Below are positions 4,115 to 63,082 of a stretch of DNA of 63,082 bases, one piece after another. The first letter of the stretch is position 1, and each line of letters opens with the position of its first letter. The stretch comes from a virus: positions 1-63,082 of IMG/VR virus record IMGVR_UViG_3300025229_000020; one strand, 5' to 3'. The translations under genes and the position numbers were made by a program. The notes under the pieces were generated by a model. The model was not told where the DNA came from. It was given only the letters and a program-made list of their open reading frames with translations, and did no database searches.

Positions 4115-4399
4115 ATGCAAATTAGGGTAGGGCAGGGCCAACCGGTGCCTATAAGAAAAGTACGATCAGATAAAAAAATACGAGTCAATTCTTCGCTTTC
4201 TCAGGACACCCATAACAAACTCGTTATGTTGGCCACTAGCTGCGGCTTGACCAAGACAAGCATGCAGGAAAAGATCGTCGAAGCAGTTCTCAATTCACCT
4301 GAATGGGTGAACTTCTTCCAAGATCGTTACAACAAGACCGGCCGATACCGGGTCATTCCGATGAAAGAGAACGGAAAAATCACCTACCTGCTGCCTTGA
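4115..4399 (+). CDS. Hypothetical protein, possible ribbon-helix-helix
   Basis: 94 aa; RVNSSLSQDTHNKLVMLATSCGLTKTSMQEKIVEAVL resembles an Arc/CopG-type beta-alpha-alpha segment. Confidence 0.5.
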   Translation: MQIRVGQGQPVPIRKVRSDKKIRVNSSLSQDTHNKLVMLATSCGLTKTSMQEKIVEAVLNSPEWVNFFQDRYNKTGRYRVIPMKENGKITYLLP

Positions 4400-4597: not shown

Positions 4598-5425
4598 TCA
4601 GCGGTAAATGTACGGCTCCAGCAGGGGGAATCTGTCAGCTGTAGCACGTTTTAATGCTCCGTAAAAGACACCACAGAAGTTATTGAAATCGCGCTCTTTA
4701 TAAAGCTGCTTGGTTCGTTTCCAAGTATCGGATGCAATCTCCGCAAGCGTAGCATCATTTTGAAGTCCGCAAAGCTTGTCCACTAGCAGAACCTTACCCC
4801 ATAGGCGGAAAGCTACTTGTCCGTCAGCGGTGTCTCTCATGATGGAAGAGGCAAACTCATCTGGCACATTTTTCGGAACCTTCTTCCAAACACGGGAGTT
4901 CGGAATACGTATTTCTTTTCTTACGTCTTTATGATTTTCTTCGGTAGACAACCCAGTTTTAAAAGACACAGTTTCGGTGGCGATACATTGCTCTTCAGGC
5001 ATTGGCGTTGTTGGCGTTTCAGGTTCATTACAATGTGACATTGGCAATGTGCCATTCAACGTGCCATCAGTAGGGGAGGGGAGCTCCCGGAGGTCTTCCA
5101 TCGGACGGATCTGATAGATGTTTGAGCCGCGCTCACCACGTTTTTTTCTCCTGGTGATCCGTGTGATGATTCCGTAGGACTCGAGCTGCTTCACAGCACG
5201 CCAAAAAGTCCGTACGGAGATCCCTAGCTTGGGTGCAAGCGTTTCGGCCTCCGCCCAGGAGACACCAACGACCTTGCAGCTGTACCGAGCCAGTCTCTTT
5301 AGGAGATTAACGGCGGATTCGGTAAGCTCATGCCCATGCGTATACAGGAACCGGCGGACAGTCTTGTCCATGTCAGATACGCTGGCGAAAGTAGCCAACG
5401 ACTGATCAATACTGATTGTATTCAT
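4598..5425 (-). CDS. Winged-helix DNA-binding protein, possible plasmid-type replication initiator
   Basis: 275 aa; wHTH segment LAPKLGISVRTFWRAVKQLESYGIITRI; RBS GGGAGGAG; followed by a non-coding, promoter- and terminator-rich region. Confidence 0.45.
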   Translation of the reverse strand: MNTISIDQSLATFASVSDMDKTVRRFLYTHGHELTESAVNLLKRLARYSCKVVGVSWAEAETLAPKLGISVRTFWRAVKQLESYGIITRITRRKKRGERGSNIYQIRPMEDLRELPSPTDGTLNGTLPMSHCNEPETPTTPMPEEQCIATETVSFKTGLSTEENHKDVRKEIRIPNSRVWKKVPKNVPDEFASSIMRDTADGQVAFRLWGKVLLVDKLCGLQNDATLAEIASDTWKRTKQLYKERDFNNFCGVFYGALKRATADRFPLLEPYIYR

Positions 5426-5739: not shown

Positions 5740-5909
5740 AAGGTCGAAAGATCGGAGCGTTCAGTTTTACCGAGTCTCGTTCGGTGGCTGATGAATCTGT
5801 TGAGAGCGCCAACTCTCTTAGATTCCCGATCATTTTTTGTTTTCAAATCTTTCTGTGGATAGTTTAGCATGTTTTTGGCAAGGTTGTCCACATGTGAATA
5901 GTTTTCCGA

Positions 5910-5940
5910 CTGATCGGCGTAATTGCCGGTCAGTTTTTTT
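5910..5940 (+). terminator. Rho-independent terminator
   Basis: 9-bp stem CTGATCGGC/GCCGGTCAG (one G-U pair), loop GTAATT, T7 run. Confidence 0.8.
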
Positions 5941-5980
5941 ATTTAGTAAGGGGGGGGCCGAAATTCCCGCCGCAATCTAT

Positions 5981-6244
5981 TTAGACTTCGGAGTCGCACT
6001 GTGGATAACTTAATTTGTGTGAAGATTTATAGTCTGTTCTCCCAAGCAAATAATCAATCGATACATCAAAATAGTTCGCGATATCAAGAAGTGTATCGAC
6101 TGTAGGGTATGATTTTTCCGACAAATACAAACTAATTGAAGATTTATGTAATCCTACAGCTTCAGCTAGATCTTTAGCCATTGCATTACTCTGTTCTAAT
6201 AGTAGGCCAAGCCGTTCAGAAAAAATTCTCCTATGTTTTGGCAT
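5981..6244 (-). CDS. XRE-family HTH regulator
   Basis: 87 aa; LGLLLEQSNAMAKDLAEAVGLHKSSISLYLSEKSYPTVDTLLDIANYFDVSIDYLLG is a canonical XRE HTH; RBS GGGGTGA. Confidence 0.85.
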   Translation of the reverse strand: MPKHRRIFSERLGLLLEQSNAMAKDLAEAVGLHKSSISLYLSEKSYPTVDTLLDIANYFDVSIDYLLGRTDYKSSHKLSYPQCDSEV

Positions 6245-6688: not shown

Positions 6689-7924
6689 ATGACGATTTTG
6701 GTACGCAATATTGCCAACGTAGTTACTGAAGCAGTCGAAAAATCTCAAATGCAGAAAATAAATATTGCAAGAGAGCTTGGGCTTACTCTGCCACAACTTA
6801 GTCGTTATCTTAGCGGAAAACGCCCATTTGACCTGAAATCTTTGGATGGAATAACCGAACTCCTGGGACTATCTAAGGGGTATTTCTATGACGAATACAT
6901 TCAAGATTGCTGGCATGCTCCTCGAAATCGAAATTCACGAATTGAGAACTTCCTCTGGCACACAAAGAGTAACGGGAAAGAGGAATACACAAGTAAGATG
7001 GTCAACCTTCTTTTGGATAGTGGAAAAGGACTAGACGATCTGTACAAAGCAGGTGAGAACTTTTATAAAAATGGTATGAATGACGAGGCGCTTTATTTCT
7101 TCAACTTAGTAATTGAAAATGAACGGAATAGATTAGCAGAATGTCTGGCGTTAAGCTACTATCGCAGGTTTATGATTGTTAGAGATTGGGATATGGACTA
7201 TGCGTTTGAGGCAGCAACGAAACTTGGAGAGCACGTACGAACTTTATCGGGGAAGGTCATGTATGAGGCTTATATCAACATAATGACAATATTCTACGTG
7301 CTTGATAAGTGGGAACACTTGCTTAAATACGGATACGAAGTTAGTTCTGTTATGGAGAGGTCGAAAGATCGAGATTTATTCCTTTATGCCAAATGTCTGT
7401 CTTATCTTGGATTTGCATACAGACACAACAAACAGTATGACAAAGCTTTGGAAACTCACAAAAAATGCGGCCAACTTCCAGGGGAGACCTTTAAAATTTG
7501 GGAGGAGTTAAATTGTTGTGTGGTGCTTCTTGAGTCAGGCCAACAAGAGAAGGTATATGAATTGATCAACCTGACTCTAAAATATAAATCAGAGGCTCCA
7601 AATCACTTAGACCATATTTTTAGCGCCTTTGTCAAAAGAAAAAGTTACGATGAAATGGATTCTTTCCTTCCGCAATTTGCAAATGAAATTAAAGAACTCT
7701 TTGCAAAGAAAGACCCTTATAACAAAAAAAGAGCGATTCGAGTCCGATTACTCCTAGCCGACTTCTATATAAATCAAGGGCGACATGAGGAGGCAGCGTA
7801 TTCAATGAAGACTGCTCTTCATCTAGCCAGACAGCTACGCTTAACGAATCAAGTAGATGAATGTATCAGAATGCTTAACCGATTTGGAAAAAACGATATA
7901 GAACTGATATGTTCAGCAATATAA
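6689..7924 (+). CDS. HTH + TPR receptor of the RRNPP type (AimR/NprR/PlcR-like)
   Basis: 411 aa. N-terminal XRE-type HTH (INIARELGLTLPQLSRYLSGKRPFDLKSLDGITELLG), then at least 5 TPR-like helical pairs (e.g. AGENFYKNGMNDEALYFFNLVI, LGFAYRHNKQYDKALETHKKC, LADFYINQGRHEEAAYSMKTAL). RBS AGGAGGAG. Confidence 0.75.
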   Translation: MTILVRNIANVVTEAVEKSQMQKINIARELGLTLPQLSRYLSGKRPFDLKSLDGITELLGLSKGYFYDEYIQDCWHAPRNRNSRIENFLWHTKSNGKEEYTSKMVNLLLDSGKGLDDLYKAGENFYKNGMNDEALYFFNLVIENERNRLAECLALSYYRRFMIVRDWDMDYAFEAATKLGEHVRTLSGKVMYEAYINIMTIFYVLDKWEHLLKYGYEVSSVMERSKDRDLFLYAKCLSYLGFAYRHNKQYDKALETHKKCGQLPGETFKIWEELNCCVVLLESGQQEKVYELINLTLKYKSEAPNHLDHIFSAFVKRKSYDEMDSFLPQFANEIKELFAKKDPYNKKRAIRVRLLLADFYINQGRHEEAAYSMKTALHLARQLRLTNQVDECIRMLNRFGKNDIELICSAI

Positions 7925-56579: not shown

Positions 56580-56780
56580 ATGCAAAAGATTAGCATTGTC
56601 ATGGATGGCCAAATGCAAGCAGTTCCTGTACTGACACCGAAACATTTATCTTTGATCCATAAGATACAAGTAGGGAAGAATTCTAGCCATGCTCCAGACA
56701 TTTTGCGGGACTTGATTGATGCCGGTCTGGTTACCGAACAAGCGGAGGATTCACTACATGGAACCAGACCAATGGCGTGA
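56580..56780 (+). CDS. Small wHTH-like hypothetical protein
   Basis: 66 aa; LSLIHKIQVGKNSSHAPDILRDLIDAGLV; RBS GGAAGGTGA. Confidence 0.45.
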   Translation: MQKISIVMDGQMQAVPVLTPKHLSLIHKIQVGKNSSHAPDILRDLIDAGLVTEQAEDSLHGTRPMA

Positions 56781-57117
56781 AGTTCTCCGTGAGCTCCTCG
56801 TTTATGGGATGTTGTTTAAGGCGGTAGCCAGGGATGCCGACAGCGTTGATCAAGCGGGTCTTAAATTGACGTACCGCCCCATACTGGATAGTATCTCTGT
56901 CTGGGCCGAGAGAAGGCATCATGAATACCGGCGACAATTCGCACGTCTTGGCGGCAAGATTCACCTGCAGGAGACGCGGGATGGATTCACTTACTTTGTC
57001 CTGGTTACCATTCGCGGGAAGCAGGAAGAAAATATCTACAACGTAGAGATCCTGCGTGCAGAGTGCCAGGAACGTCTGAACCAATATTTCAAAGCAATAA
57101 GGATCCCCCCAGCATAG
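56758..57117 (+). CDS. Hypothetical protein
   Basis: 119 aa; RBS GGAGGA; overlaps the upstream gene by 23 nt. Confidence 0.5.
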   Translation: MEPDQWREVLRELLVYGMLFKAVARDADSVDQAGLKLTYRPILDSISVWAERRHHEYRRQFARLGGKIHLQETRDGFTYFVLVTIRGKQEENIYNVEILRAECQERLNQYFKAIRIPPA

Positions 57118-57139: not shown

Positions 57140-57169
57140 GAACTCTCCTTTAACACAGGAGAGTTTTTT
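57140..57169 (+). terminator. Rho-independent terminator
   Basis: AACTCTCCT-ttaacac-AGGAGAGTT followed by T7. Confidence 0.8.
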
Positions 57170-57255
57170 TGCGTCTATCGATGCGTTTTACAATGCGTTT
57201 TACGATGCGTCCGGACGCATACAAAGACGCACGAATAGACGCACTGTAAGACGCA
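57169..57255. repeat. Eight TGCGTC/GACGCA hexamer sites at exact 12-bp phasing, 4+4 inverted about a perfect 16-bp palindrome
   Basis: TGCGT starts at 57169, 57181, 57193 and 57205. GACGCA starts at 57213, 57225, 57237 and 57249. The central sequence ATGCGTCCGGACGCAT is at 57204-57219. The spacers are not conserved. Confidence 0.9.
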
Positions 57256-57583
57256 TATACAAATCCATTCTTATCAACGCTTTCCATCGTTTTTAAAGTG
57301 ACAACATCACGTCATTCTCAAACCGTGAGTTAATATTGCATCGATGTGCAGATTTCGATTTTGAAATTAATACCCCTGTTTTTTCTCCCTCGATGGCACT
57401 ATATTATATCCGGGTTTTACTATGGTCGCAGAAGACTGTTTTTGAGACGTGATGCAAAATGAGCGTAAGCCGCGCCGTCACTGGGCTGGCACGTCAAAGC
57501 AAAGTGTAATTAATACCGATAACAATCGTGATACGCAGAAAAACGATTAATTACAAAATTGATTACAAAAAGCCCGAGGCAGC

Positions 57584-58621
57584 CTATCGGCTACCACGGA
57601 CCATTTCGACCAAACCTCGATCTATTTGATGGTTATGAAGTGGGTGAGATTTCATGGCATCCAGCACCTTACCTTTATCGATCGCGATATAATGCTCCAG
57701 CGTTTGAACGCGGGCATGCCCGGAGATCTCCTTCAGTATGAACAAATCGACTCCCTGCTTATGAAGAAACGTCAGGCAGCTGCGTCGGAGCGCGTGCAGA
57801 CTCAGACCATCCTTGAATACACCTAACCTCTTGGTGTACCCCTTGAACAGCCAATCGATGCCCTTACGCGTGTATGGTTGGCCATATTGCGTCAGAAACA
57901 GCGTTTGGTCGTCAACACCTTGAACAAAAAACTGCCGGCCGCATCTGTACCTGCTGATTCCGGAGCTGCGTTCGCTTTTGCTTGCTTCTTCATAAACGAC
58001 CCCAGTCTGCAGATAGAGCTGCAGGGCGTTGGCCAGTTGGGGGATCATCGGGATAATCCGATCCTTGCCGCCTTTACCGTCACGGACGTGGATGTAATTA
58101 TCTTCGAAATTGACGTCATACGTCTTCAAGCTGACCAACTCGCTGACGCGGATCCCAGTGTACAGGAATGTGGCGAACAACGCATAATCCCTGACTGCGA
58201 ATTTTCCTGTGAGCATGATACCATCCAGCAAGGTCTTTGCCTGCTGCTCACCAAGAGTGATGGGTATGGTGCGTGGGACCTTCATCCCCTGAATATTCTT
58301 GGCGGGATTCTTCACAATGTCGTAGTCGTCGTGGTCCACAAAATATTCGTAGAATGAACGTACCACCGAAATGGCTCTGTTCACAGTCCGCGGGGAAAGT
58401 CCCTGATCCACCAGACTAAACTTGTATTCGCGGATCTCCTGCTGACGCAACTCCAATACATCCCGAGTCGAGAAGTGCTTCATAAACCGTCTCAGATCAC
58501 CCTCGTAGCCGATTAGCGTCTTTGGGCGGGCTCCTCTATCACTTCTCAAGAAAAGCAGGTATTCACGCAAGTAGAGTTCGTTATGGCTGGTCTTTACTAC
58601 CGACAATACGTTTGACTTCAA
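57584..58621 (-). CDS. Tyrosine recombinase (XerC/D-like phage integrase family)
   Basis: N-terminal SAM-like domain (YLREYLLFLRSDRGARPKTLIGYEGDLRRF); GIRVSEL (Arg I); HALRRSCLTFL...GHARVQTLEHY (H-x-x-R, H, Tyr); TTG after GGGGAGG. Confidence 0.9.
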   Translation of the reverse strand: MKSNVLSVVKTSHNELYLREYLLFLRSDRGARPKTLIGYEGDLRRFMKHFSTRDVLELRQQEIREYKFSLVDQGLSPRTVNRAISVVRSFYEYFVDHDDYDIVKNPAKNIQGMKVPRTIPITLGEQQAKTLLDGIMLTGKFAVRDYALFATFLYTGIRVSELVSLKTYDVNFEDNYIHVRDGKGGKDRIIPMIPQLANALQLYLQTGVVYEEASKSERSSGISRYRCGRQFFVQGVDDQTLFLTQYGQPYTRKGIDWLFKGYTKRLGVFKDGLSLHALRRSCLTFLHKQGVDLFILKEISGHARVQTLEHYIAIDKGKVLDAMKSHPLHNHQIDRGLVEMVRGSR

Positions 58622-58817
58622 TCCTATTCCTCCCCTGGGTATGTTCCAGGGCGAGTCCTGATGTGATATGATCTTTTTTATCAGGCACTCGCCTGGTGAT
58701 CGAAAGGGCCGTTTCTTTGTCTGCCAGGACCAGGACGGCTCTTTCTCTATACTTAAACCATACCACCACCTTTCGATAGGAACAAATTTTCTGAGATCGT
58801 ATGTTCTGTTTTATTGT

Positions 58818-61250: not shown

Positions 61251-61637
61251 TTACTCGCCTCCCATAATCTTCTTTACAACCTTGCTCTCATCTAGCAAAT
61301 TTGGATTCGCTTCTAATAAATCCCCTAGTATTTCAGCCGCCATTTCTCCCTGATCAGTCAAATGGTACTTTAATGAAGTTCCGTCAGGATAAAAATCAAC
61401 GAATGTAGTCCCAACCAGCAAAGCAACAGCCTCGTCCACTGTGTAACGAAATTTTTTCGAACCCTCATCAAGCCCTTGGTGTTTTTGGTACTCTTTCAAG
61501 ATGGCAATTTTTGAAATACCTGTCTTATGACTGAATATGATGTAGAAAACATCAAGCGCGGAATCCTTGAGTACTTTTTCGCAAATGTAACGTACGGTAT
61601 CTTTCGTAAACACACATGACTCCCCTTCCACCAACAC
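61251..61637 (-). CDS. tubR: TubR-like small DNA-binding protein (centromere adaptor)
   Basis: About 120-128 aa gene immediately upstream of tubZ (1-nt gap); wHTH-like HKTGISKIAILKEYQKH; the likely true start is GTG 61613 after GGAAGGGGAG. Confidence 0.55.
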   Translation of the reverse strand: MLVEGESCVFTKDTVRYICEKVLKDSALDVFYIIFSHKTGISKIAILKEYQKHQGLDEGSKKFRYTVDEAVALLVGTTFVDFYPDGTSLKYHLTDQGEMAAEILGDLLEANPNLLDESKVVKKIMGGE

Positions 61638-61649
61638 AATTATGGCGCG

Positions 61650-61673
61650 CTATTGTCTGCACTATTGTGTCGC
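61650..61673. repeat. Two tandem 12-bp repeats CTATTGTnTnnn just upstream of tubR
   Basis: CTATTGTCTGCA (61650-61661) and CTATTGTGTCGC (61662-61673). Confidence 0.6.
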
Positions 61674-61725
61674 GCAATTACATAGTACCATCATTCAGAA
61701 ATAATTGGCAATAGCAAAGTTGTAT

Positions 61726-61918
61726 GAACCAGTACGACCCATCAACGCATTCGTACGTAATCATACAGACTTTATACTTATGCCATCGTATTAAGTCGCA
61801 CAATTACGCACTTGCAAATCTGCTTGTGCGACACAAACTATTGATTATTAAGGGAAACTAGCTAATGATCGAAACAGTACGACCTATCAAACTAATCATA
61901 CGTATGCCGTCATTAAAG
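61726..61918. repeat. Composite direct repeat pair in the tubR / tubY-like intergenic region (candidate tubC)
   Basis: GAAnCAGTACGACCnATCAA at 61726-61745 and 61871-61890 (18/20). TAATCATAC at 61758 and 61893. TATGCCnTC..ATTAAG at 61779 and 61903. GTCGC(G/A)CAATTAC at 61669 and 61795, with an inverted copy at 61824-61832. Confidence 0.7.
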
Positions 61919-62738: not shown

Positions 62739-63082
62739 TTACGGAGGCATTAGAACATGAACTTGGATCTCTTCCTGAGGGTGAAGGGGAACGATTGTCA
62801 GGTCTAATAGTTGACTTGATTACAGACATTGATTCAAGAGAAAAAATCTTTGCCTTTCATCAACACACAAGGGGCATGGATTCTGACAAAAAGAATCAAT
62901 TGTTTATACATATTGGCGACTTGCTTCTGGATGCGGACTCACAAGAAAAGCTTTTACAGATTCACTCAATTACGAAATCGTTGAATAGCGGGACAAAAAA
63001 CAGATTATTTTCTCATTTCACTGCTTTGGTAACAGATCCCATCCTTAATGATGTTTTTTGGGAATTACGGGGAGTTAGAACT
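62735..63082 (+). CDS. N-terminal part of the junction-spanning MazF/PemK-domain protein (continues at 128..946 after circularisation)
   Basis: TTG 62735 overlaps the TGA of the upstream gene (cTTGA); RBS GGGGGAG 5 nt upstream; no stop codon before the window end; in frame with 26..946 through the 127-bp repeat. Confidence 0.6.
   Translation, partial: MITEALEHELGSLPEGEGERLSGLIVDLITDIDSREKIFAFHQHTRGMDSDKKNQLFIHIGDLLLDADSQEKLLQIHSITKSLNSGTKNRLFSHFTALVTDPILNDVFWELRGVRT
62956..63082. repeat. Terminal direct repeat, copy 2
   Basis: Identical to nt 1-127. Confidence 0.95.

Follow-up and report, generated by a model that had tools for sequence, protein, structure and literature searches.

A mirror-image array of 12-bp units at one end of a gene-less cassette in a Brevibacillus phage-plasmid

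The virus record IMGVR_UViG_3300025229_000020 of IMG/VR, a stretch of 63,082 nucleotides referred to here as the window, contains an array of eight short repeats, four on each strand, in the gap between its late-side operon and the gene of a tyrosine recombinase. The first 127 bases of the window recur exactly at its end (1-127 = 62956-63082), so the genome is circularly assembled and complete at about 62,955 bp. Its relatives derive from Brevibacillus genomes and several of them are whole contigs or replicons of 44-64 kb; the element is therefore taken to be a Brevibacillus phage-plasmid. The plus strand of the window encodes head, tail and lysis genes. A lytic replication module with DnaD-, DnaC- and DnaB-like proteins is also present, as are plasmid-type functions, namely an FtsK/SpoIIIE-like protein, a Replic_Relax protein, an HTH_36 Rep-like protein and TubZ. 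Phage-plasmids must replicate, partition and resolve as plasmids, and to our knowledge the cis-acting sites of those from Firmicutes are almost unmapped.

The array, its conservation and its cassette

The array is situated between convergent 3' ends, those of the late-side operon and of the recombinase gene, and the locus is laid out as follows.

57141 to 57170, plus strand: intrinsic terminator of the late/lysis-side operon, an inverted repeat with hairpin AACTCTCCT/AGGAGAGTT and T-run, abutting the first hexamer of the array
57170 to 57255, no strand assigned: array of eight 12-bp units TGCGTC-TTT-nnR, four per strand
57170 to 57211, plus strand: left arm, with TGCGTC/TGCGTT hexamers starting at 57170, 57182, 57194 and 57206
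57205 to 57220, no strand assigned: perfect 16-bp palindrome ATGCGTCCGGACGCAT, where the two arms meet
57214 to 57255, minus strand: right arm, with TGCGTC hexamers (GACGCA on the plus strand) starting at 57214, 57226, 57238 and 57250
57256 to 57315, no strand assigned: AT-rich linker (about 55-60 bp) with poor sequence conservation, joining the array to the 41-bp box
57316 to 57356, minus strand: conserved box of 41 bp, found in all four array-bearing lineages
57357 to 57583, no strand assigned: stretch of about 215-225 bp from the box to the recombinase stop codon, outside the common cassette
57584 to 58621, minus strand: Xer-type tyrosine recombinase of 345 residues, with Pfam SAM-like (residues 19-94) and catalytic (residues 123-316) domains

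An earlier note on this DNA, made from the sequence alone, had described eight hexamers at 12-bp phasing mirrored around a palindrome; this architecture holds, while its coordinates all have to be shifted by +1. The hexamer heads of the units are distal and their tails face a dyad axis at 57212/57213. A repeat finder returned two families with 12-12-12 spacing, the period being exactly 12 bp in each arm, and 2 bp separate the two inner hexamers. The terminator was rightly placed directly before the array, its hairpin (57141-57149 / 57157-57165) being followed by a T-run that enters the first hexamer. Over the whole window the hexamer TGCGTY is not enriched (62 matches vs. 65.7 expected); eight of the 62 matches are packed, perfectly phased, into 86 bp. 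About 2e-22 such 4+4 arrays would be expected by chance across the window, and no second hexamer pair or palindrome, with up to one mismatch, was found elsewhere in the window.

Relatives of the recombinase were gathered from IMG/VR, GTDB genomes and a large protein collection; they are designated here by L numbers. The search for the array in related elements, which the earlier note had proposed, found it in the same place in three further lineages, L235/L236, L122 and L121, whose recombinases are 94%, 85% and 84% identical to that of the window. The 12-bp units and the 2-bp centre are kept in all of them, with the 4+4 layout in L235/L236 and L121 and four units plus an expanded right arm, including a 27-bp duplication, in L122. 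Pooling of 31 units from four genomes gave the consensus TGCGTC-TTT-nnR, with an information content per position of 0.9-2.0 bits in the hexamer, 0.5-1.2 bits in the T-tract and at most 0.2 bits in the next two spacer positions. The view that only the hexamers are conserved and the spacers differ needs one refinement: each spacer begins with a feature of its own, a T-rich run over the three bases that follow the hexamer. The 16-bp palindrome is perfect in the window, but perfect symmetry does not extend to the relatives, the central dinucleotide varying between CG, CT and TA.

Substitutions are unevenly distributed over the array. Compared with L235, the window has changes at 2 of 48 hexamer positions and 11 of 38 spacer positions (p=0.002), and compared with L121 at 8/48 and 20/38, respectively (p=5e-4). 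Since the hexamers are kept while the spacers diverge, the array is read as a set of protein-contact sites. These sequence comparisons show that the array is real and evolutionarily protected, with the substitution pattern of a protein-binding site, and the proposal of a protein-binding array rather than a hairpin or a duplication agrees both with the recurrence of the 4+4, 12-bp layout in four lineages and with the concentration of substitutions in the spacers. The degenerate hexamers of L121 (TGAGTC, TGAGCG and GTCGCA) are uncompensated across the dyad, which disfavours an RNA or cruciform helix as the selected feature.

Several other identities were tried and rejected. For an RNA hairpin or small RNA, compensatory changes were lacking in L121 and Rfam gave only spurious miRNA-hairpin matches; the DNA fold score (z = -4.1) arises because the hexamers are complementary. 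A 45-residue open reading frame (ORF) on the minus strand (57150-57287) runs through the array with a 4-residue periodicity, xASx four times and then RIVK-like, but a ribosome-binding site is lacking and the frame is interrupted in both L235 and L121, so that it is an artefact of the repeat. Neither abutted transposon ends nor a telomere-resolution site agrees with arm termini that are not TG/CA, a centre that is asymmetric in the relatives, and a circular assembly.

A blastn search of the region against phage and plasmid collections gave no useful match. A metagenome scan for TGCGT-N4-ACGCA-N8-CGCA-N7-ACGCA gave 98 matches and no relatives; the matches were mostly ACGC/ACAC-type microsatellites, with a handful of other repeats including one unrelated marine-phage family. 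Marine viral contigs (L184 155-230; L201, L220, L222, L228, L229) carry a 16-bp palindrome ATGCGTCATGACGCAT followed by TGACGCATAGAG repeated every 12 bp, a similar architecture in a different context; they are unrelated, and no recombinase gene lies nearby.

Alignment of the four lineages defines a common cassette consisting of the 41-bp box, the variable AT-rich linker and the array, after which comes the terminator, abutting the array in all four. On this alignment, array, AT-rich linker and 41-bp box make up a gene-less cassette about 190 bp long, with the array at one end. It occupies a variable cargo slot that is bounded by the late-operon terminator on one side and by the Xer-type recombinase gene, at its 3' end, on the other, and none of its ORFs is conserved across the four aligned lineages. 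The box reads GAAAyCTGCA-N9-CAATATTnAnTCACrGTTTsAGA on the recombinase strand and is on the recombinase-proximal side of the array in every case. It was rejected as a promoter, its -10 candidates being poor and a promoter scan of the gap that holds the array being negative. The stretch beyond it (57357 to 57583) occurs only in the window and its closest relative, where it is about 97% identical, and is absent from L121 and L122. A separate element, GTGCAGGATATWRAGT followed by a hairpin, was observed downstream of the recombinase gene in L123 (7050-7110), L237 (4085-4150), L250 (11050-11115) and L121 (7262-7320); the stem of its hairpin shows compensatory changes, and its core, TGCA(GG)ATATTAAsT, resembles the centre of the 41-bp box.

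Other relatives have different sequences in the slot. In L250-252 (L250 11216-11340) there are three 12-bp TCGATTTCGTCC repeats, followed by three or four DnaA-box-like TATCCACA repeats with an 11-bp period and by further copies of the TCGATTTCGTCC unit in inverted orientation, and L237 and L238 have deleted or truncated versions of the same cassette. A third type, in L132 (11183-11360), consists of three direct and two inverted AGGTAAAAACA repeats around GGATATCC, and further lineages have a terminator only. As L250-252 and L132 show, alternative gene-less, dyad-symmetric repeat cassettes occupy the slot, and these do not follow the recombinase tree.

The partition system, the recombinase and the small upstream proteins

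The earlier note compared the array with tubC of pBtoxis, the centromere where TubR assembles and couples the plasmid to TubZ filaments. The period that it gave was right, as tubC of pBtoxis comprises seven 12-bp repeats (bioRxiv 10.1101/2022.04.29.490116), and the array has this same period. TubZ is confirmed in the window by Pfam (PF22453, PF00091) and a small tubR-like gene (61251-61637, minus strand) lies directly upstream of it. The fold model of the TubR-like protein is of low confidence (predicted local distance difference test, pLDDT, 55.6), with non-significant winged-helix matches that include TubR (3m8e/3m8f). In the type III TubZRC systems of pBtoxis and c-st, a small winged-helix protein binds the short tubC repeats cooperatively and forms a bent or ring-like filament; a TubZ/TubR-like pair is encoded in the window as well.

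It is nevertheless very unlikely that the array is tubC, an assignment that position, the mirrored layout and presence and absence in relatives all disfavour. TubC is always found directly upstream of tubR and is made of direct repeats (PMC6009700). These repeats are split into blocks and overlap the operon promoter, whereas the array lies about 4 kb from the tubR-like gene in a terminator-flanked gap, with tubZ, three small ORFs and the recombinase gene in between, and its two blocks are inverted and abutting. Nor does it co-occur with TubR: there is no array from the late genes to tubZ in L257 (Brevibacillus reuszeri; TubR 87%, TubZ 90% identical) or in L343 (Brevibacillus borstelensis, a 64-kb replicon; TubR 86%), both of which also lack a recombinase gene in that interval. 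L121 has the array together with a ParM-like actin and a ribbon-helix-helix (RHH) protein and no tubR was found nearby, and L122 has the array on a sequenced contig with no partition genes. A better candidate lies next to the tubR-like gene itself:

61647 to 61681: tandem 12-bp units YGCRCTATTGYS beside the start codon of the tubR-like gene
61665 to 61677, 61791 to 61803 and 61824 to 61836: TTGTGYSRCACAA sites upstream of the tubR-like gene

The three TTGTGYSRCACAA sites are upstream of tubR in all three TubR genomes with identical spacing of 126 and 31 bp, and the relative L239 has exactly one extra 12-bp unit upstream of tubR. Judging from these repeats, 61645-61836 of the window is likely the true tubC. 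Centromere-like repeats were also seen in other relatives, with GCGAAC three times at 12 bp upstream of the HTH-ParM-RHH operon of L121 (2551-2588) and TTATGTA three times at 11 bp upstream of an Alp7A-like gene in L242 (3842-3877).

The adjacent tyrosine recombinase was another proposed binder, the array then being either a dimer-resolution site, with the palindrome as core and accessory sites for the same protein as in TnpI and the internal recombination site (IRS) of Tn4430, or a phage attachment site, attP. Single-recombinase systems often keep their site beside the gene, and in all four lineages the array neighbours the recombinase gene at its 3' end, always in the same orientation. Cores of such sites have two inverted half-sites on either side of an asymmetric overlap region of 6-8 bp; the central pair could supply such arms, with TCCGGA between them, a sequence that is a palindrome in the window and lacks symmetry in the relatives (TCCTGA, TGTAGA). 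A precedent for an inverted motif pair is the IRS, which has four TnpI motifs, two of them inverted and 4 bp apart (PMC2847244), and plasmid prophages are thought to resolve dimers by Xer-like enzymes (PMC8026635). The IRS remains the closest recombination-site analogue by layout, with motif copies beside a tyrosine recombinase gene, a central inverted pair and extra copies that in the IRS shape the synapse. It differs in having four 14-16 bp motifs over 116 bp, with one-sided accessory motifs that give direction, as against eight symmetric 12-bp units that are not inherited together with a recombinase.

We consider a recombinase site rather unlikely, because such a site would be expected to accompany its enzyme, and arm-type repeats would call for an N-terminal arm-binding domain in it. 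The array is present in only 4 of 14 lineages with recombinases that are 77-94% identical. The enzyme of L122 is 92% identical to that of L237, whose flanking cassette differs, and 89% identical to that of L125, which has no cassette, but only 85% identical to that of the window. Just 18 residues precede the SAM-like domain, leaving no room for an arm-binding domain. Furthermore, a recombinase monomer occupies 14-17 bp in Cre, Xer and FLP sites, so that the 12-bp unit is tighter than expected, and the core of the window, a perfect palindrome, could not confer direction. The recombinase gene of the L253 prophage, which is integrated in a chromosome of 6.08 Mb, lies about 6.5 kb within the element and is not accompanied by an array; this ruled against an attP split at the prophage ends beside the integrase gene. 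Unlike the downstream array, a block upstream of the gene is conserved in all relatives:

58622 to 58750: non-coding block (about 126 bp) preceding the recombinase gene, conserved in 14/14 relatives

This block contains a hairpin AAAAGCCGT...ACGGCTTTT, an inverted repeat CCAGGC-N3-GCCTG, and CTGGAAT...ATTCCAG ahead of the ribosome-binding site. It could be the regulatory region of the recombinase gene or the real target of the enzyme. An FtsK-like translocase with converging polar sites, by analogy with FtsK-orienting polar sequences (KOPS) and dif, was tried as well and rejected, FtsK being 25% identical in array-bearing L121 and 77-81% in array-less L257 and L258.

The third proposal was an operator for two small proteins encoded just upstream, of 66 (56580..56780) and 119 residues (56758..57117). 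It draws on proximity, the array starting 53 bp past the stop codon of the larger gene, and is extremely unlikely given the disagreement in presence and absence: L123/L133 encode homologues of both proteins and L128 and L257 the 119-residue one, all without the array, while L122 has the array and neither protein nearby. The array is moreover downstream of the terminator of these genes and not at a promoter, and neither Pfam nor PHROGs gives either protein a DNA-binding assignment; a relative's copy of the 119-residue protein is tagged YhjD (PF26325). More generally, no gene for a binder adjoins the array, which lies between convergent 3' ends. In this comparison neither a TubZRC centromere nor a recombinase crossover site is supported, and of the binders named in the earlier note the relatives disfavour all except a plasmid origin.

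A replication origin, a phage protein or a host factor

Mirror-image initiator arrays are known in SV40 site II, with its pentanucleotides, and in the left and right DnaA-box halves of Escherichia coli oriC, where close short sites form two opposed sets with an AT-rich flank. The array could by the same token be a replication origin, with mirror-image initiator sites flanking or adjoining an unwinding element. The mirror symmetry fits, as does the AT-rich character of the adjacent 150 bp (G+C content 0.32-0.37 over 57260-57410 vs. about 0.46-0.47 in the surrounding genome), although a high A+T content is common to intergenic DNA, which makes the flank a weak sign of an origin. The cassette of the L250 type, with its combination of 12-bp repeats and DnaA-like boxes at the corresponding place, points in the same direction. 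Against this, no DnaA boxes occur within 1 kb of the array, no initiator gene adjoins it, and its 12-bp units are shorter than typical Rep iterons. The DnaA boxes of the window cluster elsewhere:

5853 to 6012: cluster of three or four DnaA-box-like sequences adjacent to the HTH_36 Rep-like gene (4598-5425), one of them a perfect TTATCCACA (6000-6008)

This cluster is a candidate plasmid origin, and on sequence a better one than the array. A lytic origin was tested through the DnaD-like organiser and rejected, there being no co-occurrence with the array: L257, which lacks the array, has a 90% identical organiser, and none was retrieved from the array-bearing L121 contig. Overall, an origin is a minor possibility.

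Among the early-region proteins compared in a table of presence and identity, the sole phage candidate that co-occurs with the array is p94 (window 4115-4399), a 94-residue RHH-like protein. It is 94% identical in both array-bearing genomes that could be checked, the L121 contig and sample SRR28613557 (also the source of L235), and in five genomes without the array its identity is 33-61%. In the AlphaFold model (pLDDT 75.5), two helices follow a disordered N-terminus, and in a fold search this two-helix core matched the RHH proteins FitA and CopG locally and non-significantly. We regard the link between p94 and the array as weak. The protein keeps an identity of 92-94% among phages that are otherwise about 25-70% identical (e.g. 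the L254 contig), which suggests strong constraint or recent spread. Elsewhere, in the lysogeny-control region, a 411-residue protein (window 6689-7924) has an N-terminal HTH_3 domain and TPR repeats, an architecture that we take to be that of RRNPP/AimR-type peptide-sensing regulators.

It is also conceivable, if unlikely, that no phage partner is needed and the array recruits a host Brevibacillus DNA-binding protein, such as a RacA-type sporulation chromosome-anchoring factor or a titrated regulator. We know of no host factor with a TGCGTC site, which speaks against this. In its favour, the cassette moves independently of every neighbouring phage gene, and the alternative cassette of L250-252 in the same slot includes host-factor sites in the form of DnaA-like boxes. 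Of the 14 positions of the central 14-mer TGCGTCCGGACGCA, 8 agree with the Bacillus subtilis ram consensus TGACGCCGGCGTCA, among them both terminal TpG steps, which RacA reads, and RacA ram sites occur clustered (PMC4914108). The interior of the half-site differs from ram, however (CGT vs. ACG), and the central CCGG varies in relatives (CCTG, GTAG). A more specific proposal, and a distinctly unlikely one, is that the cassette is 'cis-only' cargo that hijacks a host DNA-binding protein, e.g. a RacA-like pole-anchoring factor that would tether the phage-plasmid into the forespore. Such landing pads would be swapped in one slot, the DnaA-box cassette of L250-252 being another example.

A possible plasmid-maintenance element

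Related phages exchange the cassette horizontally, and its presence is independent of the partition system, the recombinase allele, the flanking ORFs and the lytic replication organiser. The reading that we prefer, tentatively and at less than even chances, is that the array is a horizontally exchanged plasmid-maintenance element bound by a factor supplied in trans. In this model, a small sequence-specific DNA-binding protein would occupy each 12-bp unit, reading the TGCGTC head and the T-tract, and would oligomerise cooperatively along each four-unit arm. As 12 bp exceed the 10.5 bp of a helical turn, each protomer would be rotated by about 51 degrees, making each arm a short spiral filament, and the two filament arms would meet tail-to-tail at the dyad. 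The binder may be phage p94 or, alternatively, a host protein. The complex would then act in cis as an incompatibility-type determinant of the plasmid state, centromere- or iteron-like, with a role in copy control, pairing or an origin-like function. We infer the cooperative binding, the filament geometry and the maintenance role.

Partition sites of types II and Ib resemble the array in part. The parC sites of R1 and pSK41, the omega heptads of pSM19035 and stbS of R388 likewise have eight to ten short units in a 7-12 bp register, read by a small oligomerising RHH or helix-turn-helix protein, and such arrays can be split into two sets, as in stbS with two sets of five 9-bp repeats on an 11-bp cycle. 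The array shares with these ParR/omega/StbA-type sites tandem short units that are conserved at contact bases only. It differs in having no adjacent binder gene or recognisable promoter, and in that its sets are inverted and 2 bp apart. The comparison with SV40 site II and oriC is limited in a similar way, by the lack of a linked initiator or DnaA boxes and by the better origin candidate elsewhere in the genome.

Several observations weigh against the maintenance reading. The sample on which conservation was judged is small, at four lineages. Each genome already has its own repeat set upstream of its partition operon, and the DnaA-box-like cluster at 5853-6012 competes for the role of plasmid origin. 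The fixed position and orientation of the array beside the recombinase gene in all four lineages would fit an accessory role in recombination equally well. As for the binder, p94 is 92% and 87% identical on IMG/VR contigs that do not match the strict array pattern (the L254 and L258 contigs, respectively), and the surroundings of the p94 genes contain no TGCGTC pairs, although an RHH protein that regulates its own gene would be expected to have them there.

The array would work like centromere or iteron arrays, yet it does not behave as tubC, as a recombinase site or as a promoter-embedded operator array should. For annotation this is a caution, as a textbook-looking 12-bp array near tubRZ need not be tubC, and neither proximity nor period alone can assign a binder. 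The array is also a compact, 86-bp bait for capturing its partner. A new kind of variable slot also emerges: the lysis side and the recombinase gene of related Brevibacillus phages are separated by a gap that holds alternative gene-less repeat cassettes. If these cassettes are indeed incompatibility or host-factor determinants, they would form a hidden layer of phage-plasmid diversification.

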